Shown: positions 19 to 44,667, numbered from the stretch's first letter. The stretch is DNA of 44,667 nucleotides from Candidatus Omnitrophota bacterium (GCA_015233235.1 JADFYD010000001.1:43909-88575), one strand, 5' to 3'. Numbers and translations are program-made. Notes: generated from the sequence alone by a model not told the origin.

Positions 19-399
19 CTATTTTTTGGCACCACCAGCCGGAGCTTTTCCGCCGGAAGCCGGAGCCTTAGCGGCACCTGCCGCCGGAGTTTTTGCACCC
101 GCTGCCGGAGCTTTCGCACCCGCTGCCGGAGCTTTCGTACCAGTTGCCGCTGCCTGAGCGCCTTGAGGCGCGGCACCCGCCGCCGGAGCGCCCGCCGCCG
201 CAGCGGCTTCTTCTTCGGTAGCCTTCTCTTTCTTGACCTTGAACATGATCCTTTTAACTTTTGGCAGATGGTACACGGAGTCTTTTGACGAACTCCACTT
301 CTCTTTTTCTACAAGTTCCTTGATCCTCTCGAATCTTTTGATCACGGACCGGAACTTAGCTCCTACTTTACTCATTTTCAAACTGGGATGCTGTGACAT
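19..399 (-). CDS. Small basic protein (PVC-type N-domain) with an Ala/Pro/Gly/Lys-rich histone-H1-like repeat tail
   Basis: 126-aa ORF with ATG at 397-399, preceded by a GGAGGAAAG RBS. The N-terminal ~57 aa (MSQHPSLK..ERIKEL..KW..DSVYHLPKVK) matches, from memory, the ~60-aa small basic protein family of Planctomycetes/Verrucomicrobia-type genomes. The C-terminal ~65 aa is KAPAAGA-type low complexity. Confidence 0.7.
   Translation of the reverse strand: MSQHPSLKMSKVGAKFRSVIKRFERIKELVEKEKWSSSKDSVYHLPKVKRIMFKVKKEKATEEEAAAAAGAPAAGAAPQGAQAAATGTKAPAAGAKAPAAGAKTPAAGAAKAPASGGKAPAGGAKK
38..145. repeat. In-frame tandem repeat: five units each starting GCCGGAG (38-58, 59-82, 83-103, 104-124, 125-145)
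   Basis: Read directly from the sequence. The last three 21-nt units are near-identical. They encode the (K/T)APAAGA heptads of the CDS at 19-399. Confidence 0.85.
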
Positions 400-5588: not shown

Positions 5589-5662
5589 TGGAGCGAGCGA
5601 GGGGAATCGAACCCCCGTTTCCAGCTTGGGAAGCTGAAGTTCTACCATTGAACCACGCTCGC
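5589..5662 (-). tRNA. tRNA-Gly (anticodon CCC), CCA encoded
   Basis: Hand-folded reverse complement: GCGAGCG-TG-GTTC-AATGGTA-GAAC-T-TCAGC-TTCCCAA-GCTGG-AAAC-GGGGG-TTCGATT-CCCCT-CGCTCGC-T-CCA. This gives a 7-bp acceptor stem, a TTCGA T-loop and anticodon loop TT-CCC-AA. Confidence 0.9.
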
Positions 5663-8357: not shown

Positions 8358-8375
8358 ATTTAAGACTCCGAGGGG

Positions 8376-8480
8376 ACTTGGTACTTGGTACTTGGTATTT
8401 GGTTTTACTCATCAAACCAAGTACCATTAACCAAATACCATTAACCAAGTACCATTAACCAAATACCACAAACCATAAAC
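8376..8480. repeat. Composite heptamer-based tandem and inverted repeat
   Basis: ACTTGGT x3 plus ATTTGGT at 8376-8403. An 8-nt loop follows. Then AACCAAGTACCATT / AACCAAATACCATT 14-mers occur x4.5 at 8415-8480. 8394-8405 pairs with 8414-8425 (12 bp including one G-U). Confidence 0.9.
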
Positions 8481-10253: not shown

Positions 10254-11606
10254 TCAATCATTGGGGATCTTTGGAAAAAACTTCTCGATGAAATGTGTCG
10301 AGATCTTGCCGTTCTGGAAATCCGCGTCCGAAAGAACCCTTTTATGAAAGTTGACCGTGGTCTTCGTAGGTTCTACGATAAACTCGTCCAAAGCGCGCAG
10401 CATTGTATTTATGGCCTCTTGGCGTGTTTTGCCATACGCGATCAGCTTCGCTATCATCGAATCGTAATAAGGCGGTATTACATAACCTGCGCAGGCATGC
10501 GTGTCTACCCTTATGCCGTTACCCCCCGGCACATAAAACGACTCTATTTTGCCGGGACACGGGCAAAAATTATTCTCGGGATCTTCCGCATTCACGCGGC
10601 ATTCGATCGCGCATCCGGTAAAAGTAACATCTTTTTGTTTATACGGCAATTCCTGGCCGGCCGCTATTTTGATCTGTTCCTTCACTATATCAATACCGGT
10701 CACCATTTCCGTGACGGGATGTTCCACCTGTATACGCGTATTCATCTCCATGAAATAATATGTGTCGCCGTCCAAAAGAAATTCGATAGTCCCGGCACCT
10801 ATATAGTTGGCGGCTTTAGCTCCCTTGACAGCGTCTTTACCCATTGCCTCTCTAAGTTCTTTGCTAAGTGCGACAGAAGGCGATTCTTCTATAAGCTTCT
10901 GGTGACGGCGCTGAACGGTGCAGTCTCTTTCGCCCAAATGGATAATATTGCCGTAGTTGTCACCGAGGATCTGGAACTCTATGTGCCGGGGGCTTTCTAT
11001 ATATTTTTCCATATACAGGTCAGAATTACCGAACGCGGCTTCCGCTTCGCTTTTCGCCGTCAGAAACGCTCCGACAAGCCGGACATCGTTATGGCAAACT
11101 CTCATACCTTTTCCGCCGCCGCCCGCCGAGGCCTTGATGATAACGGGATACTTGATCCTTTTAGCCTCTTTGAGAGCGTCTTCCTGTGTGGCTATTATGC
11201 CGGCGCTCCCGGGAGTGATCGGTAAACCCGCTTCCTTCATCGTTTTTTTCGCGTTCATTTTGTCGCCCATAAGACGCATACTTTCCGGTGACGGACCGAT
11301 AAATTTAATGTTACACGACTCGCATATCTCGGCGAAGTGCGCGTCTTCCGCCAGAAAACCGTAACCGGGGTGTATGGCTTCGACATCGGTAATTTCGGCG
11401 GCGCTTATTATGTTGGGAATGTTAAGATAACTCTCGGATGAAGGCGCCTTCCCTATACATACAGCCTCGTCGGCAAAATGAACGTGCAATGAGTTAGCGT
11501 CAGCCTGAGAATATACCGCCACGGTCTTTATACCAAGCTCTTTACATGCCCGCATGATACGAAGAGCTATTTCCCCTCTATTTGCGATCAATATTTTTGA
11601 AAACAT
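10254..11606 (-). CDS. accC: Acetyl-CoA carboxylase biotin carboxylase subunit
   Basis: [17 protein letters not shown]... aligns from residue 1 with canonical AccC (ATP-grasp). The track ORF starts 3 codons earlier, at 11615. Confidence 0.95.
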
Positions 11607-11622
11607 ACTTCTCATTTTTATG

Positions 11623-12090
11623 TTATAACTGGGTGTCGATTACAAAAATGGTCTGTCCAAACTCAACGGGGTCGGCATTCTCAACTGGTATCTCCATGAT
11701 CTTGCCGTCATACTCGCTCTTTACTTCATTCATCATTTTCATCGCTTCGAGGATACACAAAACATCGCCTTTCTTCACCATATCGCCTACCCGCACGTAA
11801 GGATCGGCTTCCGGAGAACTCGATCGGTAAAATGTCCCCACCATGGGAGCCTTTACTTCGGTCCCTTTGTTGGCAGGCTTTACTTCGGGCTTAGCCTCGC
11901 TGACCGGCTGTCCCTGTGAAGAATTGACAGACGCAACCTGCTGTAAAGGCATCGGAATGTACTGGTGTTCGACAGCTCCGGCCGACTTTTTAATAAGCCT
12001 CACCTTAGTCCCTTCATGATCGATCTCGACCTCGGTCAGATTATTCTCGTTCATTATTTCAGCAAGCGCCTGAATCTGTTTAATATTCAT
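11623..12090 (-). CDS. accB: Biotin carboxyl carrier protein
   Basis: 155 aa with the C-terminal lipoyl/biotinyl domain and EAMKMMNE biotinylation motif. It lies immediately upstream of accC. Confidence 0.9.
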
Positions 12091-12117
12091 CTTAGGCCTC
12101 TCTTTTTCTGTTTGTCT

Positions 12118-12678
12118 CTAAACCCGTTCGATATATTCGCCCGTGCGCGTATCGATCTTTATTACGTCGCCGGCATTAACGAACAGCGGAACCCTGACAG
12201 TCTTACCGCTCTCCACTTTCGCCGGTTTATTCGCGCCGGTGACAGTATTGCCTTTAAATCCGGGTTCTGTCTCTATAACTTTGAGCACAACATGAATAGG
12301 CATGGTCACTGACAAAAGTTTATTGTCGTGGAAATTTACGGTTATCCTCATGTTGTCCTTTAAGTATTCGGCAGTATCACCCATTACGTTCACCGGTATA
12401 TAAAACTGCTCGTATGTGGTCTCATCCATGACACAATAGCCCATGTCGTCCTTAAAAAGGTACTGTACCATTTTTTGGTCTATATATACCTGCTCAAAAG
12501 TGTCCTCAGGGCGCACCGTTTCTGGGATGATCGCGCCTGACGCCAAATTTCGCAGTTTTGTCCTGACAAAAGCCCCGCCCTTTCCTGGTTTGTGGTGATT
12601 CGCGTCAACAACTTCATGCAGTTGTCCGTTGAAAATTATCACTACTCCCGGTCTCAATTGTTTCGCACCCAACATCAT
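12118..12678 (-). CDS. efp: Elongation factor P
   Basis: 186 aa with the HKPGKGGAFVRTKLRNL loop, typical length and the conserved pepP-efp-accBC context. Confidence 0.95.
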   Translation of the reverse strand: MMLGAKQLRPGVVIIFNGQLHEVVDANHHKPGKGGAFVRTKLRNLASGAIIPETVRPEDTFEQVYIDQKMVQYLFKDDMGYCVMDETTYEQFYIPVNVMGDTAEYLKDNMRITVNFHDNKLLSVTMPIHVVLKVIETEPGFKGNTVTGANKPAKVESGKTVRVPLFVNAGDVIKIDTRTGEYIERV

Positions 12679-13739
12679 ACAGTCAACACCTCACATCCAT
12701 TTTTTGTTATTAATACCATATCTTCCCATCGAATACCACCCACTTTGGGCTTATACAAACCGGGCTCTATGGTCACAACCATCCCTTTTTCAAGGATATC
12801 TTCGGAATTTTCCCTCAGGAACGGCTCCTCGTGTATGTCGAGACCTACTCCGTGTCCCAAGGAATGACGTATATATCCGTTCAAACCGCTGTCTAAAAAA
12901 CGCTTATATGACTTTTTAACAAGATTACCGATCTTGACCCCGGGCCTAAGATCCCGTATGGCATCATCAGAAACAGCGCGCACTGCATCGTAAAAGGCGC
13001 CCAAGGTGCGACCCATTCTACCTTCATGCCATATTCTTGTCAAGTCAGAAGAGTAATCCATATATTTGATACCGAAATCCAAAAGTACAAATTCACCGTT
13101 TTTTAACTTTTTTTTAGTCGGCACTGCATGCGGATGCGCGGAATTAGGACCCGCTGCGACTATGGAAGGGAAAGAATTCTGATAACCGAGTTCTCTGATG
13201 CGCGTGTCCAGCATAGTTGATATTTCGATTTCAGTCATCCCATAAGCGATTCTTTTTTCAATATATTTCCATATTTTCACGGTAGCTTTAGCGGCTGTCC
13301 GCAAAAAAACTATTTCTTCGGCACTTTTAACGCTTCTCATCCTTTCAACGTCATTTTGGACGGTCAAAAGTTTCAGGCCGTTCTTGTTACGCATAGCCAA
13401 ATATCTGTCGAGATCGAAATATCGCGGATAAATACCTATTTTACCTATCTTTTTCGAGAAAATATGATCTAAAATATCTGCGATGGTATTCCCGCGAGCG
13501 ACCGTGAAATTTTTATTTTTTACGGAGTTTCCAACAAGGCTAAAATTCATTCTGTCGCTAAAATATACGGGTTTATCCAACCGCGGGATGAGCAGTGAAA
13601 CCCCGGAAATATAAAACCCTGTGAGGTAAAGTATGTTAGCCCTATCCGACAGCAAAAGCGCATCCACGTCGATGGACCGGAGACTTTTCTGCAAATAAAG
13701 GATGCGGGAGTGTTTTGAAAAAGGCATGATAATATCCAA
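12675..13739 (-). CDS. pepP: M24-family Xaa-Pro aminopeptidase
   Basis: 354 aa with HGVGLDIHEEP and VVTIEPGLY metal-ligand blocks. Confidence 0.85.
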   Translation of the reverse strand: MDIIMPFSKHSRILYLQKSLRSIDVDALLLSDRANILYLTGFYISGVSLLIPRLDKPVYFSDRMNFSLVGNSVKNKNFTVARGNTIADILDHIFSKKIGKIGIYPRYFDLDRYLAMRNKNGLKLLTVQNDVERMRSVKSAEEIVFLRTAAKATVKIWKYIEKRIAYGMTEIEISTMLDTRIRELGYQNSFPSIVAAGPNSAHPHAVPTKKKLKNGEFVLLDFGIKYMDYSSDLTRIWHEGRMGRTLGAFYDAVRAVSDDAIRDLRPGVKIGNLVKKSYKRFLDSGLNGYIRHSLGHGVGLDIHEEPFLRENSEDILEKGMVVTIEPGLYKPKVGGIRWEDMVLITKNGCEVLTV

Positions 13740-14180
13740 TTATTCGCCCAAAAAGTTCATAAGCGCGTCTATACCAAGCAAATAGCTTCTCTTCCCGAAT
13801 CCGCTGATCTGCCCGAGTGCGACAGGGGCGATAAGGGATTTATGTCGGAACCCTTCCCTGGCGTAAATATTGGAAATATGCACTTCAACTGTCGGGATAC
13901 CCTTAGCGCTCAGGGCATCTCTTATGGCGACGCTTGTGTGCGTATACGCCGCCGGATTTATAAGTATCCCGGAGGCGTCAGTTTTCCCTATCTTATCGAC
14001 AATATCGCCTTCATGGTTAGATTGCATAAATTCACATGTAAAATTATTGCGCTTAGCCGACTCACCGATTTCCTCGTTGATCCCGGCCAATGTTTCTCTG
14101 CCATAAATATCAGTTTCCCTTTTCCCAAGAAGATCAAGATTAGGCCCGTGTATCACAAGTATTTTTTTCATATTTCCCAC
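13740..14180 (-). CDS. aroQ: Type II 3-dehydroquinate dehydratase
   Basis: 146 aa: [42 protein letters not shown]. Confidence 0.9.
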
Positions 14181-22954: not shown

Positions 22955-24037
22955 TTATTTACTGATAATACCCATGCTATGCACCAATTTTTTGAACTCT
23001 TCCACATCGGTGGACCTCGCCACTGCCTCTTCAAAAGTTATGATCTTTTTATAACAAAGCTCGGCAAGCGACTGATTCATTGTTCTCATACCGCTTTGCT
23101 TTGAAGTTTGGAGGACCGAATATATCTGATGCCCCCTTTCTTCCCTTATCATGGTTTTTACCGGAGGAGTAGCCACAAGTATTTCAGCGGCCAACACCCT
23201 TCCGGCAGATCCGGCACGCGGTATAAGCTGCTGCGAAATTATGCCGAGGAGTACAAAGGAAAGCTGTGTCCTGATCTGGTTTTGCTGGTATTCGGGAAAG
23301 ACGTCAATGATACGGTTCATGGTTTGTATGGCATCAGATGTATGCAGTGTCCCGAGCACCAGGTGGCCGGTATCGGCAATAACAAGCGCCTGCTGTATAC
23401 TTTCAAAATCCCTGAGCTCCCCGATAAGTATTACATTGGGGTCCTGCCTCAAAACATGCCTCAACGCGTTGTGAAAGGAAAACGTGTCAAAAAGCACCTC
23501 TCTTTGGTCGATCAGAGCCTTTTTATTGGCATGAACATATTCGATCGGGTCTTCGACCGTAACGATATGGCACGCTCGGTTGGCATTAATGTAGTCGATC
23601 ATTGCGGCAAGCGAGGTAGATTTACCGCTTCCTGTGGCGCCGGTAACAAGCACTAACCCTTTTGGCTTGTTACAGAAAGCCTTAACTATCTCCTCCGGCA
23701 ATCCGCACTCTGAGATACTGCGTATTTTGTCGGGTATCAACCTTATCGCGCAGCCGATACGCGCTCTTTGATAGAACACGTTAGCGCGGTAACGCGCGAC
23801 GCCTTCTATGGATAGGGCGAAATCAAGTTCTTTTTCTTTTCTGAATTTTTCAGCCTGCGTTTCGGACATCAAACTGAATATATATTCTTCCGCCTGTTTT
23901 TCACTGACGGGTGAATCGCCTATTTTTATCAAAACTTCGTCGATCCTGTAACGCAAAAAATCATTTGAAGTTATATGCACGTCGGAAGCGTTTTTCGGGG
24001 CCATATCACGCAGGACTTTCTCGATGTATGCGTTCAT
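22955..24037 (-). CDS. pilT: Twitching-motility retraction ATPase PilT family
   Basis: GATGSGKSTS, VEDPIEY, IGELRDFES and GHLVLGTLHTSDA, at a PilT-like length. I prefer the ATG at 24035-24037 (MNAYIEK), which has an AGGAG RBS. The track ORF extends to 24088. Confidence 0.9.
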   Translation of the reverse strand: MNAYIEKVLRDMAPKNASDVHITSNDFLRYRIDEVLIKIGDSPVSEKQAEEYIFSLMSETQAEKFRKEKELDFALSIEGVARYRANVFYQRARIGCAIRLIPDKIRSISECGLPEEIVKAFCNKPKGLVLVTGATGSGKSTSLAAMIDYINANRACHIVTVEDPIEYVHANKKALIDQREVLFDTFSFHNALRHVLRQDPNVILIGELRDFESIQQALVIADTGHLVLGTLHTSDAIQTMNRIIDVFPEYQQNQIRTQLSFVLLGIISQQLIPRAGSAGRVLAAEILVATPPVKTMIREERGHQIYSVLQTSKQSGMRTMNQSLAELCYKKIITFEEAVARSTDVEEFKKLVHSMGIISK

Positions 24038-24124
24038 CTCGTCTCCTCTTTTAATATTATTACCCGCTTGTAATATTACCCTACTCACCAGTGAAAGTCA
24101 AAAATGGCGTTATGTAATATGCGT

Positions 24125-24285
24125 CTTGATGCGGCGGGTGGCAACCGTGAAGTCTGAGCGACGAAAAAATCGATGCGAGCGCTTAAATAACGAGACTTCT
24201 CTGAAGTTCTTCGCCTGCAGAGTAATTAGCGAGTCCGATTTTTGAGAAGCGAGGACGAACGGTTGACAGGACCCGCCGCATCAGG
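24125..24285. other. ~160-nt structured element (three-way junction closed by 13 + 6 bp) in the 254-nt gap upstream of pilT
   Basis: 24127-24139 TGATGCGGCGGGT pairs with 24271-24283 ACCCGCCGCATCA. 24143-24148 AACCGT pairs with 24259-24264 ACGGTT. Inner hairpins are 24149-24155/24193-24199 (7 bp) and 24208-24214/24249-24255 (7 bp). Strand and class are unknown. Confidence 0.45.
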
Positions 24286-24291
24286 AAGTCG

Positions 24292-26046
24292 CTACTTATA
24301 AAATCCACTTTCAAGTAATTCGGACTTCAATTTTGCAACATCCGTCCCAACATCGATATGTCCCCACGGAAGAGGGTCTTCAAGCGGAATAAACCTGGCG
24401 GCTTCCTTACTAAGATCTCGCCCGTTCTCCTTGAACGCCTCGTCCCAAATGGAGAAGTTGAAAAATTCCGGCCAGGCATCGAACCTGGCGCCTTTTTTCC
24501 AGGCGGAGAATATTATTTTTCCCGTCAGTCTATCGCCGCGGGATAAGGCCCCCTCTAGAAGAGATTTTGGAACATCGTGCACTTCGAACTTGAGACGTTT
24601 ATACTTTTTCCCTAAAAGGATATCTTTCTGACGAGAAAAGAAATTTTCGTCTTGCATGCCAAGCCATTGAAAAGGAGTATGAGGTTTTGGCACAAAAGGG
24701 TTAATACTTGCCTTGATCTCGGCCGGTCCCTTTCCAACACGGGTACGAAGTTGCGATATAGTTTCGGTCCACTTGCAAATGCTGGATATTTCTTTTTCGG
24801 GATCGCCGGGGAAACCTATCATAAAGTATAATTTTAATTTTTCCCAACCGTGTGTGTAAGCTTCAAGCACCGATTTGCAAAAAATATCAAAGTTGGTTTC
24901 TTTCCCTATCGCCTTTTGCAATTCCATAAGAGCCGTCTCCGGCGCGAAAGTCAGACTTGTTTTTTTAATTATGGCTATCATTTCAGGGACCTCATAGAAC
25001 GATTCGTCTATTCGAAGCGACGGGATGGATAAACCTACTCCGTATTTCTCAAATGTTCCGTTGAGCGCTTTTATAAGTTCGGCCAAATACGGATAATTCA
25101 CGCTTGAAAGGGACAATAAACTTATCTGGTTATGCCCTGTATGCTTATATGTTTCTAAGCACTTGTTTATAATTGTCTCAACTTTACGCAACCTTAAGGG
25201 TCTTGAAATATACCCCGCCTGGCAGAACCGGCATCGATTGGGGCATCCTCGCATAATTTCCATGCTTATCCTGTCGTGGATAACCTTAATGTACGGGACT
25301 AACTGCTTGACCGGATAATAAGCTTTATCCAGATCCATTACCGCACGCTTTTTAATGCAGGCGGGAGCGCCGTCTGTGAGACGATTCAATCCCTTGAACA
25401 TATTTCCTTCGTACTCGCCAGAATAAAAACGCGGGACATAGATCCCTTCGATCCCGGAAAGCCGCAGTAATTTATCGTTGCGACTCATGTTCGTGTTTTT
25501 CATGGAAGCATACATTTCCATAAATTCAGGCAAAAGTTCCTCAGCGTCGCCGATCACAAAAATATCAATGAAGTCCGACATGGGCTCGGGGTTACAGTTC
25601 GCCCCTCCCCCCGCTACCACGATCGGTTCATCCTCTTTGCGGTCTTTCGACAATATTGAGACATCGGACAAACTCAGCATATTGAGAATATTCGTGCAGT
25701 TAAGCTCATAAGTCATGGAAAATCCGAAAAAATCGAATTCTCGCACTGGTTTTTTGGATTCTAGCGTAAAAAGCGGTATTCCCTCTTTTTTCATTTCCGC
25801 TTCCATGTCATGCCAAGGGGCGAAAACCCTTTCGCAATTCACGTTTTCGATCTCGTTCAGTAGGTGATAAACGGTCACAAGCCCCAGGTGACTCATGCCG
25901 ATCTCGTAAATATCGGGGAACGCCAACGCGAAAGAGATGGTGTCGGTTTTAAAGAGTTTGCGTACGCTGTTGATCTCGCCGCCGATATATCGCCCGGGCT
26001 TATGCACTTTCTGGAGGATTTGAGTGAGGATGCTCATCGTGTTCAT
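24292..26046 (-). CDS. B12-binding-domain radical SAM protein (TIGR03960-like)
   Basis: 584 aa. The N-terminus LQKVHKPGRYIGGEINSVRK is typical of this family, and the radical SAM cluster is CPNRCRFC. It overlaps the rodA start by 4 nt. Confidence 0.85.
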   Translation of the reverse strand: MNTMSILTQILQKVHKPGRYIGGEINSVRKLFKTDTISFALAFPDIYEIGMSHLGLVTVYHLLNEIENVNCERVFAPWHDMEAEMKKEGIPLFTLESKKPVREFDFFGFSMTYELNCTNILNMLSLSDVSILSKDRKEDEPIVVAGGGANCNPEPMSDFIDIFVIGDAEELLPEFMEMYASMKNTNMSRNDKLLRLSGIEGIYVPRFYSGEYEGNMFKGLNRLTDGAPACIKKRAVMDLDKAYYPVKQLVPYIKVIHDRISMEIMRGCPNRCRFCQAGYISRPLRLRKVETIINKCLETYKHTGHNQISLLSLSSVNYPYLAELIKALNGTFEKYGVGLSIPSLRIDESFYEVPEMIAIIKKTSLTFAPETALMELQKAIGKETNFDIFCKSVLEAYTHGWEKLKLYFMIGFPGDPEKEISSICKWTETISQLRTRVGKGPAEIKASINPFVPKPHTPFQWLGMQDENFFSRQKDILLGKKYKRLKFEVHDVPKSLLEGALSRGDRLTGKIIFSAWKKGARFDAWPEFFNFSIWDEAFKENGRDLSKEAARFIPLEDPLPWGHIDVGTDVAKLKSELLESGFYK

Positions 26047-30269: not shown

Positions 30270-31328
30270 TTACCGACGGAGTTTCGGCGAAACGGTGACT
30301 TTTTTAAGGTAGTTAAGTTCGGTAAGAGCCTTACCCGTACCCAAAACTACCGCCGTTAACGGATCATCGGCTATGTGTACCGGCAAACCAGTCTCTTCCG
30401 AGATAAGCTTATCGATACCGACAAGAAGCGACCCGCCGCCCGCCATTATCAAACCTTTTTCGATGAGGTCCGCAGAGAGTTCGGGCGGAGTCCTCTCAAG
30501 GGTAACACGTACAGCTTCTACTATCTGCGCGATGGGCTCCGACAATGCCTCTCTTATCTCTTCGCTGTTGACCGTGATGGATTTCGGCAGGCCCGCCACA
30601 AGATCACGGCCCCTGACTTCCATAGTGAGTTCCTGCTCCATCGGGTACGCCGAGCCTATACTGATCTTAATGTCTTCGGCTGTCCTTTCCCCTATCATCA
30701 GGTTATACGTTCTTTTCAAATAATTTATGATCGCCGTGTCCAGCTCATCGCCGCCTATCCTTATGGACTTCGCGAAAACTATGCCGGCCAACGATATAAC
30801 GGCCATTTCGGTAGTACCGCCGCCGATATCTATGATCATGTTACCCGAGGGTTCCTGTATCGGAAGCCCTACTCCTATGGCCGCGGCCATGGGCTCTTCT
30901 ATCATGAACACTTCACGCGCGCCGGCATGAAGGGCCGAATCTTTTACGGCTCTGCGTTCAACCTCGGTAATACCGGACGGGACAGCGACAACGATCCTGG
31001 GCCTTACCATCCTTCTCGAGTGATGTACTTTTTTTATAAAGTACCTAAGCATGCTCTCGGTAATGTCGAAATCAGCTATAACGCCGTCTCTCATTGGCCT
31101 TATGGCTACGATGTTACCGGGTGTACGGCCAAGCATCCTTTTCGCCTCTTCCCCGACAGCGAGCACATTGCTTGTCCCCGCTTCGATCGCGACGACCGAA
31201 GGCTCGCACAGAACAATACCTTCATTTTTAACGTAGACCAGCGTCGAAGCGGTACCTAAGTCGATACCCATGTCACTTGAGAACAAACTCGACACGCCGT
31301 CCAGTACCTGTGAGAGAATTTTCATCAT
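30270..31328 (-). CDS. mreB: Rod shape-determining actin homologue MreB
   Basis: 352 aa with [21 protein letters not shown] and GGGSLL motifs intact. Confidence 0.95.
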
Positions 31329-31498
31329 GCGCTATGCCTCTCTTTTAATTTCTTGGTATTATCCGGTTAACTACCCGTTATTATTATGCTTATGCGAATT
31401 TAAATTTGTAAGCTGAATATTAACAAAATATGCTGGGGCTGTCAACCGTTTTCTGTCCGTTTAAAACCATACACAAACCTGAATTTACATCAATGAGG

Positions 31499-31646
31499 AT
31501 GCCGCGGATGAAAAGTTCCGGACGAACCCCCGGCAGCGACGTCGGGCTCGGATCCGCCGAAGGCGGACCGACTCGCTGCCGGATGAGCCCGACCGGCCGC
31601 CGGAGCCGGTCGGGCGTGTTCGGCCGGAACTTTTCATCCGCGGCAT
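31499..31646. other. GC-rich 148-nt inverted-repeat element folding as a three-way junction
   Basis: The 29-nt arms 31499-31527 and 31618-31646 match at 28/29. Inner hairpins are 31531-31581 (9 + 5 + 6 bp) and 31587-31615 (10 bp). G+C is about 70% by hand count. TTTTTT follows on the plus strand at 31647-31652. Confidence 0.6.
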
Positions 31647-31662
31647 TTTTTTCATTACTTTG

Positions 31663-32961
31663 TTATTGGGAAACACTCATGAGATCTGTGTAGAAGCTCG
31701 GATATGAAGTATTGACGCAGTTGACATTCTGCACGGTCGAGTTACCGCCGGCTGAGAGTGCGGCAATGGCCATGCTCATCGCGGTCCTGTGATCGCAGAA
31801 ACTGTCAAATATCGCGTTTTTCAGACCGTTAACTTTGCCCTTTATATAAAGGTTGCCGTTCTCTTCCCTGAAAGAGACGCCCATTTTAGCCAGATTAAAA
31901 CGCATGCTCTCTACCCTGTCCGTCTCTTTCACCTTAAGCTCGGAAATACCTTTTATCACGGTCTCGCCTTCGGCGTGAAGCGCGGCTATGATAAGTATCG
32001 GTATTTCGTCGATAAGAAGAGGGATCTCTTCTTCCTTTACGATGGTTGATCTTAATAAGGAGTGTTTAACCAGTAAGTCGCCTACCGGCTCTACGCCTTC
32101 TTTTTGGTCCATCACACTTATATTAGCTCCCATTCTCAGGAGAACGTCTAATACACCCCTGCGAGTCGGGTTCAACCCGGTGTTTTTCAGCGTCAGCTCG
32201 GAACCTTTAACAATGAGCCCCGCGGCAATAAAAAACGCGGCGCTGGAGATATCTCCGGGGACTGCGATATCTCTGGCAATGAGCTTTGAACCGCCTTTAA
32301 CTTTTGCGGTACAGCCTGATCTCGCGACTTTAACAGACAAATATTCAAACATCCTCTCCGTATGATCCCGGGAGATAAAAGGTTCCGTAACACTGGTTTC
32401 ACCGCGCGCGTAAAGTCCCGCGGCGAGGATGCATGACTTAACCTGCGCGCTCGCGACAGGAGAGTTATATGATATGCCGGAAAGGCCTGTTTTTGACGGA
32501 GATATCTCAAGAGGAGCACATCTCCCGTCTGAAAGTGACCTGATCGATGCGCCCATTTCCTTAAGCGGCTTCATTATCCGCTCCATCGGGCGGTTGGAAA
32601 GAGAGTCATCACCCTCCAAAATAGTCGTGAACTTTTGACCCGCGAGTATGCCGGAGATCACCCTCATGCTCGTCCCGGAATTCCCCAGGTAAATGGGCCT
32701 TTTAGGAGCTTTTAAGCCTGAAAGCCCCGCTCCTCTTATTTCGACCGTGCCTTTAGAATGTGCTATCTCGACACCGAGAGACTTGAACGCGTTTAAGGTA
32801 CACAGGCAATCTTCGCCCATCAAGAAATTGGTCACCCGAGTATCGCCCTCGGCTATCGCGCCGAACATTATGGCGCGGTGCGAAACGCTTTTATCCGGAG
32901 GGACGGTTATCGTACCTCGAAGTGTTTTGACGGGTTTTATTGTCCAATCCATAACAATCAT
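31663..32961 (-). CDS. aroA: 3-phosphoshikimate 1-carboxyvinyltransferase (EPSP synthase)
   Basis: 432 aa with VPPDKSVSHRAIMF, LGNSGTSMR and DHRTAMS motifs. An alternative ATG lies 3 codons downstream, at 32952. Confidence 0.95.
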   Translation of the reverse strand: MIVMDWTIKPVKTLRGTITVPPDKSVSHRAIMFGAIAEGDTRVTNFLMGEDCLCTLNAFKSLGVEIAHSKGTVEIRGAGLSGLKAPKRPIYLGNSGTSMRVISGILAGQKFTTILEGDDSLSNRPMERIMKPLKEMGASIRSLSDGRCAPLEISPSKTGLSGISYNSPVASAQVKSCILAAGLYARGETSVTEPFISRDHTERMFEYLSVKVARSGCTAKVKGGSKLIARDIAVPGDISSAAFFIAAGLIVKGSELTLKNTGLNPTRRGVLDVLLRMGANISVMDQKEGVEPVGDLLVKHSLLRSTIVKEEEIPLLIDEIPILIIAALHAEGETVIKGISELKVKETDRVESMRFNLAKMGVSFREENGNLYIKGKVNGLKNAIFDSFCDHRTAMSMAIAALSAGGNSTVQNVNCVNTSYPSFYTDLMSVSQ

Positions 32962-33878: not shown

Positions 33879-33923
33879 ATCTGCATCGCGATCATAAAAC
33901 CGCTACTTTACGACATTGCGCGA

Positions 33924-33953
33924 CGTAGGGGCACGGCATGCCGTGCCCCTACG
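33924..33953. other. Perfect 30-nt palindrome CGTAGGGGCACGGCATGCCGTGCCCCTACG (stem-loop just after lgt)
   Basis: Read directly from the sequence, 6 nt downstream of the lgt stop. There is no adjacent U-tract on either strand. Confidence 0.7.
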
Positions 33954-38030: not shown

Positions 38031-38056
38031 AACCTTCCTTTTTCTTTAAATGTAAC

Positions 38057-38076
38057 GGGCACCCTAAAGGGTGCCC
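38057..38076. other. Stem-loop GGGCACCC-taaa-GGGTGCCC in the mtnP-ileS spacer
   Basis: Perfect 8-bp GC-rich stem. On the minus strand it lies between the heptamer repeat and the ileS RBS (AAGGAAGG). Confidence 0.7.
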
Positions 38077-42212: not shown

Positions 42213-43176
42213 GTTCTTCTCCTAGGCTACCATGGGGATATTCACGCGCGCCACTCTCGTCAATCGCCATGATCAAGATCTTTCGGCATAACTCGGGAAA
42301 AGTTATACCTGCGGCCTTTGCCGCCATCGGTAAAAGGCTTTTCTCCGTGAACCCGGGAATGGTGTTCACTTCGAGAACATACATATCGTTCTTGTCGTCA
42401 AGCCTTATATCTACCCGGGACATATGTTTACAACCCAGCGCCTTATGGGCACGGATAGCAAGGTCCTGGGCTTTCGCGGAAATCGATCCGTCAAGTTGCG
42501 CCGGGACGATATATTTTGTCTTACCGCTTAAATACTTCGAGTGAAAATCATAGTACCCATCTTCAGGCACGATCTCAACGACAGGTAAAGCTTTTTCATC
42601 AAGAATGCCCACGGTAAGCTCCCTGCCACCGATATATTCCTCGACAAGCGCGTCACCGTCATAAGCACGCGTTGCAAGGACCGCTTTTACCGCGTCATCT
42701 TTTGTTTCACAAATAGCTATGCCAATGCTGGAACCTTCAAACTGTGGTTTAACAACACACGGTACGTTGATATTCCGCGCGTCGACTTTTTCGTTCCTTT
42801 TTACGACAACAAAACCCGGAGTACTGACTGATCGTTCCACAAACTTATATTTCGACCGTATCTTATCCAGTGCCAGATTTGAAGCCGTTTTGTCGGAACC
42901 GGTGAATATGATATTGTTTTCTTTCAACAACCCCTGTATGAACCCATCTTCACCATACTTGCCGTGTAAGGCTAAAAATGCGAGATCTATGCCCAAAGAA
43001 CCGATCTTCCCGAAACTTTCTTCGGTAAGATCGACGAACTTCACATCGACCCCCGCCCCCTTCAAAGCGTTAAATACAGCCGCGCCGCTTTTCAGGCTTA
43101 CTTCTCTTTCGGTCGAAGCGCCGCCTGCCAAAACAGCGATCTTGTATTGTTTTAGTCTGTCCATACCGTGCATCAT
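42202..43176 (-). CDS. ddl: D-alanine--D-alanine ligase
   Basis: 324 aa ATP-grasp protein: IAVLAGG.S.EREVSL.SG, HG..GEDG..QG, VLEVNT.PG.T. Confidence 0.95.
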   Translation of the reverse strand: MMHGMDRLKQYKIAVLAGGASTEREVSLKSGAAVFNALKGAGVDVKFVDLTEESFGKIGSLGIDLAFLALHGKYGEDGFIQGLLKENNIIFTGSDKTASNLALDKIRSKYKFVERSVSTPGFVVVKRNEKVDARNINVPCVVKPQFEGSSIGIAICETKDDAVKAVLATRAYDGDALVEEYIGGRELTVGILDEKALPVVEIVPEDGYYDFHSKYLSGKTKYIVPAQLDGSISAKAQDLAIRAHKALGCKHMSRVDIRLDDKNDMYVLEVNTIPGFTEKSLLPMAAKAAGITFPELCRKILIMAIDESGAREYPHGSLGEERGT

Positions 43177-44667
43177 AATACCTCTATCTCAAGTTCCAGG
43201 TCTACATCAAATTTTTCGTTCACTTTTTCTTTTATGGTCTTTATGAGAGCCCTGATGTCTTTTGAAGTCGCGCCGCCCGAGTTCACGATAAAATTAGCAT
43301 GCTTTTCGGAAACAACCGCGCCTCCTATTTTGAGGCCCTTAAGCCCTGCCATATCGATCAACTGTCCGGTTTTAAGAACGCCAGTTCCCGGATTTTTGAA
43401 AACACAGCCCAGGGTCAGGTCATCCAGCGGCTGCTTCAGTATTTTTTCCGACATAAATTCCTTGATCCTCCCGGAAACCGCATCGGAGGATGACTCTTCA
43501 AGGTTAAATACGGCTTCGAGCACGATCCAGCTTTCCGGGATAGACGATACTCTGTAGGAAAAATTAAGATCTTTTTTGTTGACCACTCTTACGGCACCCT
43601 CACCGTCCACGACTTTGAGCGAGATCAGCTTGTCCGATATCGTGACTTTATATCCGGCATTACCTTCTATCGCCCCGCCGACCGTCCCGGGGATACCTAC
43701 CATTCCTTCAAAACCCGAAAGACCCGCCTTCGCGGATTCGGCGATAAGTTTGCCGAGCGGAGTCCCCGCCCCGGCGGTCAAACAATTTCCATTTATCCTT
43801 ACAAAATTAAAATCAGGCGCCGATAATTTAACAAAAACCATATTCGTAAAACTGTCCGAAAAAAGAATATTCGAACCAGCCCCAACTATTTTAAAGCCGA
43901 TGTCTTCTTCCCTCGCCGTCTCGACAAACGACATGAGTTCCGCAGAAGATGACGGTTCGTACCACGCTGCAGCTTCGCCTCCTATCCCGATCGAACTATG
44001 CTTCCCCAAAGGCTCGTTAAAACATACTTTACCGCCGCTTTTAGAGGAAAGCTCCGAAAGAAGGCCTTTTACAAGATCACCCGTCAAGTTGGACAATTTC
44101 ATTTTCGTATTGGTATTTTTTTCTTCGATCGCCTTGGCGATGCCACCGGCAATAAGGTTAATATCACCGGCCGCCATCAAAATCACCGTATCGCCGGGTT
44201 CGGCGGTGCTCACGACAAATTCGACGACGGAATTTTTGCGCATGAATTCCGCGCGTAAAAAACGCGCCTTGTCGATCTTGTCATAAACATACTTCGCGTC
44301 CTTGCCTCCGAACGGGAGCTCGTCTGCGGCGTAAATATCGGTCAAAGTCAAGACATCCGCTCCATAGAAACATTCGGCAAACTCGTCCGCGAGGTCATTC
44401 GTCCGGGTGTATCTGTGAGGCTGGAACACCACAATAAGTTTTCCGCTTCCTACATAAGAACGCGCCGCATGGATCACTGCCTTGATCTCGGTGGGATGAT
44501 GCGCGTAATCTTCGAAAATATCTATCCCGCCGGCGGTATACAGACGATAAAAACGCCGTTTCACCGTTTTAAACACTTCCACGGCATTTTGTATGCCCTT
44601 AAAATCAAGACCCATTTCCAGAGCAAGGCCGCACGCGGCCACAAGGTTCATGACATTGTGCCGCCCG
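43173..44667 (-). CDS. MurC (C-terminal part; 5' end outside the window) fused in frame to MurB
   Basis: The reading frame is open to the window edge (..GRHNVMNLVAA.. is the MurC mid-domain). It continues with DYAHHPTEI and FQPHRYTRT (MurC C-domain), then an ~15-aa linker, then full-length MurB (GIGGEA, VGAGSNIL, GIPGTVGGA, FKNP, SEKHANFIVN). There is no stop codon between the two parts. Confidence 0.85.
   Translation of the reverse strand, partial: GRHNVMNLVAACGLALEMGLDFKGIQNAVEVFKTVKRRFYRLYTAGGIDIFEDYAHHPTEIKAVIHAARSYVGSGKLIVVFQPHRYTRTNDLADEFAECFYGADVLTLTDIYAADELPFGGKDAKYVYDKIDKARFLRAEFMRKNSVVEFVVSTAEPGDTVILMAAGDINLIAGGIAKAIEEKNTNTKMKLSNLTGDLVKGLLSELSSKSGGKVCFNEPLGKHSSIGIGGEAAAWYEPSSSAELMSFVETAREEDIGFKIVGAGSNILFSDSFTNMVFVKLSAPDFNFVRINGNCLTAGAGTPLGKLIAESAKAGLSGFEGMVGIPGTVGGAIEGNAGYKVTISDKLISLKVVDGEGAVRVVNKKDLNFSYRVSSIPESWIVLEAVFNLEESSSDAVSGRIKEFMSEKILKQPLDDLTLGCVFKNPGTGVLKTGQLIDMAGLKGLKIGGAVVSEKHANFIVNSGGATSKDIRALIKTIKEKVNEKFDVDLELEIEVL

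Follow-up and report, generated by a model that had tools for sequence, protein, structure and literature searches.

The spacer between aroA and mreB in a genome of the Candidatus Omnitrophota carries a 148-nt foldback element which we regard, with moderate confidence, as a lineage-specific, non-coding, MITE-like insertion that is likely transcribed as the 3' tail of aroA. It was analysed within a stretch of 44,667 nucleotides (1-44667), here called the window. The ~44 genes identified in the window and its only tRNA (5592-5662) are all located on the minus strand, in agreement with the initial annotation, which saw no plus-strand gene. Positions of the element, its parts and its neighbours are listed in Table 1.

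Table 1. Features at the aroA-mreB junction, with positions counted from the first nucleotide of the window
Feature	Position	Strand	Description
Foldback element, 148 nt	31499..31646	none	70.3% G+C; gap columns in relatives' aroA-mreB spacers
Left terminal arm	31499..31527		ATGCCGCGGATGAAAAGTTCCGGACGAAC; pairs 28/29 with right arm
Right terminal arm	31618..31646		GTTCGGCCGGAACTTTTCATCCGCGGCAT; 29 nt
Interior hairpin A	31530..31582		10+5+6 bp, GAA loop, 7-nt internal bulge; minimum-energy folds
Interior hairpin B	31587..31615		11-12 bp, all G-C/C-G save one A-T; minimum-energy folds, inverted repeat
Coding-strand sequence bordering the element junctions		-	...GAAAAAAA on one side, TCCTCATTG... 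on the other
aroA stop-to-element spacer, 16 nt	31647..31662	-	Holds coding-strand A-run AAAAAAA; flank, outside the inverted repeat
aroA (3-phosphoshikimate 1-carboxyvinyltransferase)	31663..32961	-	TIGR01356, 411 bits vs cut-off 287
mreB promoter	31417..31445	-	TTGACA-17-TAATAT with TG extension; sigma-70-like scan
mreB, first gene of mreBCD-pbp2-rodA	30270..31328	-	PF06723, E 9e-152

The 148-nt foldback structure is real and statistically extreme. An inverted-repeat search confirmed the terminal arms described in the initial annotation, which are 29 nt long, 97% complementary (28/29) and separated by 90 nt; their only mismatch, at arm position 24, opposes A to G on the plus strand and C to U on the minus strand. 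Together the arms form the longest inverted repeat within 300 nt across the whole 44.7-kb window, and no comparable repeat exceeded 15 matches when 30 shuffled windows were searched. In the minimum-energy fold a closing stem of 23+5 bp encloses hairpins A and B, the outer 10 bp of hairpin A being a perfect inverted repeat. The two stable hairpins noticed earlier inside the arms were recovered in this fold, which contains 61 pairs within the 148 nt compared with the ~59 counted previously. Its energy was -119.9 kcal/mol on the plus strand (z -11.1 vs shuffles) and -117.7 kcal/mol on the minus strand (z -10.7 vs shuffles); DNA parameters gave the identical structure with -76.9 kcal/mol (z -13.3). 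Two overlapping ORFs in the element, of 87 and 63 aa, had no Pfam match.

The G+C content of the element (70.3%) rises to 78.9% in the interior, in agreement with the ~79% estimated initially, and is 55% in the arms; that of the 100-nt flanks is 34% and 40%, and that of the whole window 46.6%. The edges of this shift fall at the outer ends of the arms. Such sharp edges point to imported DNA, not to slow evolution in place from a spacer of ~30% G+C. Because all 61 pairs formed on the plus strand are of the Watson-Crick type (44 G-C, 17 A-U, no G-U), the fold prefers neither strand; 2 G-U pairs are present among the 62 on the minus strand. RNAs shaped by selection usually include a few G-U pairs, and their fold is more stable on the transcribed strand than on its complement; neither feature is expected of a palindrome that was made at the DNA level or is very young.

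The ends of the element read ATGCCGC and GCGGCAT. The sequences flanking it (...AATGAGG and TTTTTTC...) were inspected for a target-site duplication of 2-10 bp, as flanks the repeats of MITEs, and share no direct repeat. The only duplication candidate is the outermost AT of each arm which, being its own reverse complement, is indistinguishable from two more bases of the terminal repeat. Neither GTAG nor CTAC occurs in the 148 nt, and the arms are not self-complementary.

The source of the window is a member of the Candidatus Omnitrophota without a close relative on record, the best AroA match other than itself being 62%. Loci from seven relatives (L005, L007, L009 and L060-L063) were compared with it. 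The gene order ileS-dksA-lspA-lgt-rluD-aroA-(mreBCD) is kept in 7/7 relatives, and aroA directly adjoins mreB in six of them (L007, L009, L060-L063). In these six, the aroA-mreB spacers measure 118-283 nt with 24-37% G+C, the best inverted repeat has at most 10 matches, and folding yields between -0.14 and -0.24 kcal/mol per nt. The corresponding spacer of the window measures 334 nt, peaks at 79% G+C and folds with -0.44 kcal/mol per nt (z -9.5). A multiple alignment placed the 148-nt element in columns that are gapped in nearly all relatives. The -35 box TTGACA and the TGnTA of the extended -10 region of the mreB promoter are invariant in 7/7 aligned genomes (the window plus the six relatives). 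Without the element, the distance from the aroA stop to the -35 box would be ~69 nt, which is within the range of the relatives.

As it is absent from the six relatives and aligned with gap columns, the element is, judged from the alignment, an insertion that took place in the source lineage, downstream of the aroA stop and upstream of the conserved mreB promoter. The comparison of this spacer among relatives had been proposed in the initial annotation, and the site was found to be empty in six of them, 'empty' denoting absence across a distant clade and not a recent empty allele. AroA proteins of the aligned Omnitrophota are ~57-62% identical to that of the window, and the insertion is only loosely dated because relatives with at most 62% identity in AroA are distant ones.

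Two further observations concern the same spacer. Most relatives share a box upstream of the mreB promoter that resembles AGTAnGTACTCAAAAT-ATAAAT and is partly palindromic; it could be a regulator site. In the window, the element abuts a remnant of this box, ...CTCATTGATGTAAAT. In L005, the nearest relative, DUF7674 and helix-turn-helix genes are located between aroA and mreB (11290-13284), with a foldback of 168 nt and 31-nt arms (11401-11568) in front of them. Given these extra genes and the accompanying foldback, the aroA-mreB junction seems to take insertions repeatedly.

In sequence searches, the element matches no catalogued repeat or RNA family and has no detectable homologue. A screen of the whole window against Rfam, likewise proposed at the outset, returned at the gathering threshold only the tRNA elsewhere and no family on the element; when matches with E up to 10 were admitted for the spacer, they were noise, the best one on the element being mir-341 with 20.8 bits vs a threshold of 90. 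A tRNA/tmRNA scan of the aroA-mreB spacer found none and no tRNA-like fold. Readings of the element as a retron, 6S RNA, Y RNA or SRP RNA were dropped given that neither a reverse transcriptase nor an Rfam signal was found.

Within the window, an arm 23-mer occurs only at its two known places, even with 3 mismatches allowed, and sensitive blastn and nhmmer searches of the 44.7 kb detected no second or partial copy. The window has 14 spacers of at least 40 nt, and only one of them holds the element. A search with nhmmer over 478 kb of the loci compared yielded nothing in relatives. In 185,579 species-representative genomes, an arm 20-mer had four chance matches, all in coding DNA and with no partner arm (Melioribacteraceae, Rhodospirillales and Planctomycetes MAGs). 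In a metagenome collection, an arm 18-mer had 38 chance matches, all of them to a single arm and extending over at most 25 nt, many in one conserved protein-coding motif. An arm 16-mer had 11 chance matches in viral contigs, where three interior patterns had none, and blastn against plasmids and phages gave only short G+C-rich scraps with E >= 0.04. These searches of large collections rested on exact 16-20-mers, so that diverged copies or ends would escape, and the collections evidently do not contain the source genome, the copy count of the element hence covering the 44.7-kb window. No parent insertion sequence with the terminal repeats of the element was present in the collections searched by exact arm k-mers or blastn, and a literature search on Omnitrophota repeat elements found nothing relevant.

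The element lies in the 3' flank of aroA, and the order on the coding strand is aroA stop, 16 nt, element, ~53 nt, mreB promoter with the -35 box first, and mreB. This near-consensus promoter is the best sigma-70-like site in the 14 kb scanned (22-36 kb). The TTTTTT reported earlier directly after the right arm (31647-31652) is present on the plus strand and corresponds to an A-run on the coding strand; the relatives are A-rich just after aroA, too. Judged by this resemblance, the T-run is probably native spacer rather than a terminator tail of the element. What follows the element's stem on the coding (minus) strand is UCCUCAUUGAUG; a U-tract is found on the plus strand only. A terminator scan over the element reported only small sub-hairpins. 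Canonical terminator motifs were found 17 times in the window vs 17.0 expected from shuffles, and ordinary hairpins after genes are G+C-rich perfect stems without U-tracts; the source genome seldom relies on U-tract terminators. The window as a whole is a run of housekeeping genes comprising dcw and mre cell-wall genes, ileS, lspA, lgt and genes for type IV pilus ATPases, and also accBC, efp, aroQ and thiC. Genes for a transposase, an integrase, a reverse transcriptase or a RAYT were searched for in these 44.7 kb, and none was found.

According to the explanation that we favour, non-coding palindromic DNA would have been inserted in this Omnitrophota lineage into the A+T-rich aroA-mreB spacer. 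The foldback element was probably mobile once and would now be a low-copy element or a lone survivor. RNA polymerase leaving aroA would transcribe it, given that the element starts 16 nt after the aroA stop. The resulting RNA would consist of a 28-bp closing helix and two G+C-rich hairpins; it could keep exonucleases away from the 3' end of aroA, impede read-through towards the mreB promoter, or provide a possible long double-stranded target of RNase III. Such effects on the transcript would have come about incidentally with the insertion and would not amount to a conserved function. The Correia and ERIC elements of other bacteria, for which effects of this kind have been shown, provide a precedent.

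MITE interiors are usually unstructured leftovers, and the two well-formed hairpins of the element are atypical in this respect. MITEs are defined by a length of 50-800 bp and terminal repeats of at least 10-15 bp (PMC11602168), and some of their families are present in as few as 1 copy per genome (PMC10969869). With 148 bp, 29-nt terminal repeats that match at 28/29 and no coding match in Pfam, the element agrees with this class in these respects, and it is called MITE-like and not a proven MITE since no clear target duplication, second copy or parent element was seen. Of the MITE/REP-like insertion considered in the initial annotation, the part that stands is an insertion relative to six relatives that has the size of a MITE, terminal repeats and no coding capacity; a second copy, a clear target-site duplication, a parent insertion sequence and the defining features of REPs were not found. 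The element is a small palindromic intergenic insertion of a familiar general kind, and not a demonstrated RNA gene.

Several known systems invite comparison. Correia elements, about 100-155 bp long and with terminal inverted repeats of ~26 bp, are multi-copy in their genomes and generate duplications of a TA target. They correspond to the element in size, in the length of their arms and in their location behind a gene. Correia elements, however, lack G+C-rich interior hairpins whereas the element is 79% G+C inside; moreover, the element has one known copy and no clear duplication, and no shared sequence emerged from the searches. Correia/NEMIS elements, a MITE of Neisseria, are intergenic and co-transcribed with their neighbours, and their paired terminal repeats form a helix that is cut by RNase III (PMC10969869). 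The ERIC/IRU elements of enterobacteria are imperfect palindromes of ~127 bp in transcribed intergenic regions which alter mRNA stability or decay when located at gene 3' ends, and ERIC constitutes a conserved family with 30 to 711 copies per genome (PMC10969869). The element shares with them the palindromic character and the position in intergenic DNA at the 3' end of a gene, but differs in that ERIC is multi-copy and no family of the element was found.

REPs have a conserved GTAG-type 5' tetranucleotide, and RAYT genes are usually single-copy and may be located anywhere in the genome. Like REP, BIME and REPIN sequences, the element is a G+C-rich extragenic palindrome after a gene. REPs, in contrast, are 20-40 nt long and present in tens to hundreds of copies, whereas the 148-nt element occurs once in 14 spacers, contains neither GTAG nor CTAC, has arms that are not palindromes, and is not accompanied by a RAYT gene in the window. 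REPINs consist of two inverted REPs that form one long hairpin, without target duplication (PMC3337134, PMC3116915). MITEs that carry terminator-like motifs are known, such as SPRITE (PMC10969869). With an intrinsic terminator the element has in common a G+C-rich stem followed by a T-run (on the plus strand only) directly after a gene; unlike in a terminator, the U-tract is on the strand devoid of genes, and the stem encloses 90 nt instead of a loop of 3-8 nt. The attC sites are imperfect inverted repeats of 57-141 bp at gene 3' ends that fold as single strands, sometimes with a branched centre. The inverted repeat at a gene 3' end and the branched central part are reminiscent of attC, but the ends of the element lack the core sites, no integrase is encoded in the window, and aroA is part of a conserved housekeeping cluster.

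Other explanations of the element were weighed against the MITE-like insertion. It is unlikely, though worth serious consideration, that a cis-acting three-helix RNA arose in place and was selected as a terminator, insulator or 3'-end stabiliser that parts aroA from the mreB promoter. The position fits such a role, with 16 nt separating the element from the aroA stop and ~53 nt from the mreB -35 box, and the near-perfect pairing could reflect selection. Furthermore, lgt and the PNP_UDP gene also end in G+C-rich perfect hairpins without U-tracts, and from these stems elsewhere in the window the genome seems to use structures of this type. Against this stand the six relatives, which have the same gene order and promoter and no structure at this site, so that a structure after aroA is not a conserved requirement; the coding strand has no U-tract, a sharp-edged 148-nt block of 70-79% G+C is hard to evolve from a spacer of ~30% G+C, and the absence of G-U pairs together with equal stability of both strands is unusual for an RNA shaped by selection. 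The insulator or terminator after aroA that had been suggested initially is therefore plausible as an effect and rightly positioned, but it is not borne out as a terminator with a U-tract on the coding strand or as a structure present in relatives. A non-coding RNA from the minus strand, for example a small RNA cleaved from the aroA 3' untranslated region at the long helix, appears quite improbable. Small RNAs derived from 3' untranslated regions are an established class, on the coding strand the element directly follows a gene, and its helix of 28 bp has the length required of an RNase III substrate; yet no homologues were found and there is consequently no covariation support, Rfam gave no match, and the relatives do not have the element.

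The initial annotation had put forward a plus-strand small RNA of ~210 nt, extending from a promoter TTGTAA-17-TATGCT (31406-31434) to the closing stem and the T-run (31647-31652). The promoter-like sequence does exist upstream of the element, and a G+C-rich stem base followed by 6-7 T on the plus strand has the shape of an intrinsic terminator. Nevertheless, we consider such a gene very improbable: only 8/12 positions of the promoter agree with the consensus, below the 9/12 threshold of the scan, and it lies in A+T-rich DNA opposite the much stronger, conserved mreB promoter of the minus strand; the stem closes a branched 'loop' of 90 nt, unlike a terminator hairpin; the fold has no strand preference; no Rfam family matches; the element is absent from relatives; and the T-run, read on the coding strand as a run of A, is similar to the A-rich stretch that relatives have after aroA. 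A site that acts as DNA, i.e., a cruciform or hairpin for recombination, protein binding or replication, such as an integron attC-like site or a hairpin substrate of the IS200/IS605 or REP type formed by a single strand, would agree with the exclusively Watson-Crick pairs, the z-score of -13.3 under DNA parameters and the lack of strand bias. It is nonetheless highly improbable, as the ends of the element lack the attC core sites RYYYAAC and GTTRRRY, aroA is not an integron cassette given its conserved gene order, the GTAG/CTAC of REPs is missing, and no integrase, RAYT or TnpA is encoded in the window. Finally, the foreign composition and an 88.6-kb source contig that appears to belong to a metagenome assembly are what would be expected if a short piece from an organism of high G+C content had been spliced into the contig. 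Short chimeric inserts between correct host flanks are not a usual assembler error, however, and this piece carries its own 29-nt terminal repeats and leaves both genes and the promoter undisturbed, which makes an artefact extremely unlikely.

It is distinctly unlikely that the element represents the first known member of a G+C-rich structured family of an unsampled Omnitrophota lineage, which could be either a new family of MITEs or a regulatory RNA. One possibility in the former case would be that the parent transposon is yet to be found. In the latter case, the RNA could be transcribed from the plus strand as far as the T-run or be released from the aroA 3' tail by cleavage, and it might link the synthesis of aromatic amino acids with the expression of the cell-shape operon that mreB heads.

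Should the element be a MITE-like insertion, it documents mobile or foreign DNA inside a highly conserved housekeeping cluster of a poorly known, uncultured phylum. With a biosynthetic gene on one side and the cell-shape operon's promoter on the other, it could alter transcription of both, and it would add a sequence family that is missing from current repeat and RNA catalogues. At present it is a single orphan copy with putative activity, the value of which is mainly that of a marker.

Other foldbacks were detected in the window and in relatives. One at 24124-24286, located between a radical-SAM gene (24292-26046) and a T2SSE ATPase gene (22955-24088), has 16-nt arms that match at 94% with 131 nt between them and folds into one long irregular rod. 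Its energy is -75.2 kcal/mol on the plus strand (z -6.2) and -62.0 kcal/mol on the minus strand (z -4.6); unlike the 148-nt element, it is clearly more stable on the plus strand, a difference that hints at the presence of G-U pairs and, possibly, of an RNA made from this strand. Rfam contains no match to it. In L007 the radical-SAM and T2SSE ATPase genes are only 40 nt apart, and this foldback is lineage-specific as well. The 31-nt-armed foldback of L005 (11401-11568) lies downstream of aroA. L009 has a 219-nt foldback in the mreD-pbp2 spacer (13896-14114), with 21-nt arms (90%), several interior hairpins and a z-score of -5.9. Kinship of the element with these three foldbacks was considered and rejected as local alignment scores equalled those of shuffles, in line with the earlier statement that the element has no obvious sequence likeness to the one at 24125-24285. 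The three had no sequence in common among themselves either, their scores again being equal to those of shuffles, and a MAFFT alignment of the element with the other foldbacks revealed only a few common end bases. Long-armed foldbacks may constitute a recurrent, undescribed class of elements in Omnitrophota spacers, a notion based on a small sample.

Shorter palindromes are also present in the cluster. A perfect G+C-rich palindrome, GTAGGGGCACGGCA/TGCCGTGCCCCTAC, follows lgt directly (33923-33952) and has no U-tract, and a similar stem, GGGCACCC-TTTA-GGGTGCCC, is found after the PNP_UDP gene (~38050-38075). Palindromes starting with CGTAGGGGC are located in L005 as well, at 12613-12670 and immediately behind aroA. 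These lgt-type palindromes resemble REP sequences in that they start with GTAG. The GTAGGGGCAC palindrome after lgt was examined as a potential family of the element and discarded, given that the two have no sequence in common and that the palindrome is no more frequent in the window than expected by chance. In the spacer between the ThiD2 and cytidylyltransferase genes (8373-8475), short inverted repeats of the GGTACTT / AACCAA(A/G)TACCA type form a long A+T-rich hairpin with z-scores of about -3.5 to -5.5.

Two genes near the ends of the window deserve mention. An ORF on the minus strand (43173-44651) joins a Mur ligase C-terminal domain with MurB FAD-binding and C-terminal domains, a combination which suggests a fused murC-murB gene whose start is possibly beyond the window. 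At the other end, a minus-strand gene (19-399) encodes a small basic protein of 126 aa with no Pfam match and an Ala/Pro/Lys-rich C-terminal tail (AKAPAAG...). This tail is encoded by 21-nt tandem repeats of ~73% G+C and resembles histone H1. A second stretch of >70% G+C in the window (30-230) proved to be the coding sequence of this tail.
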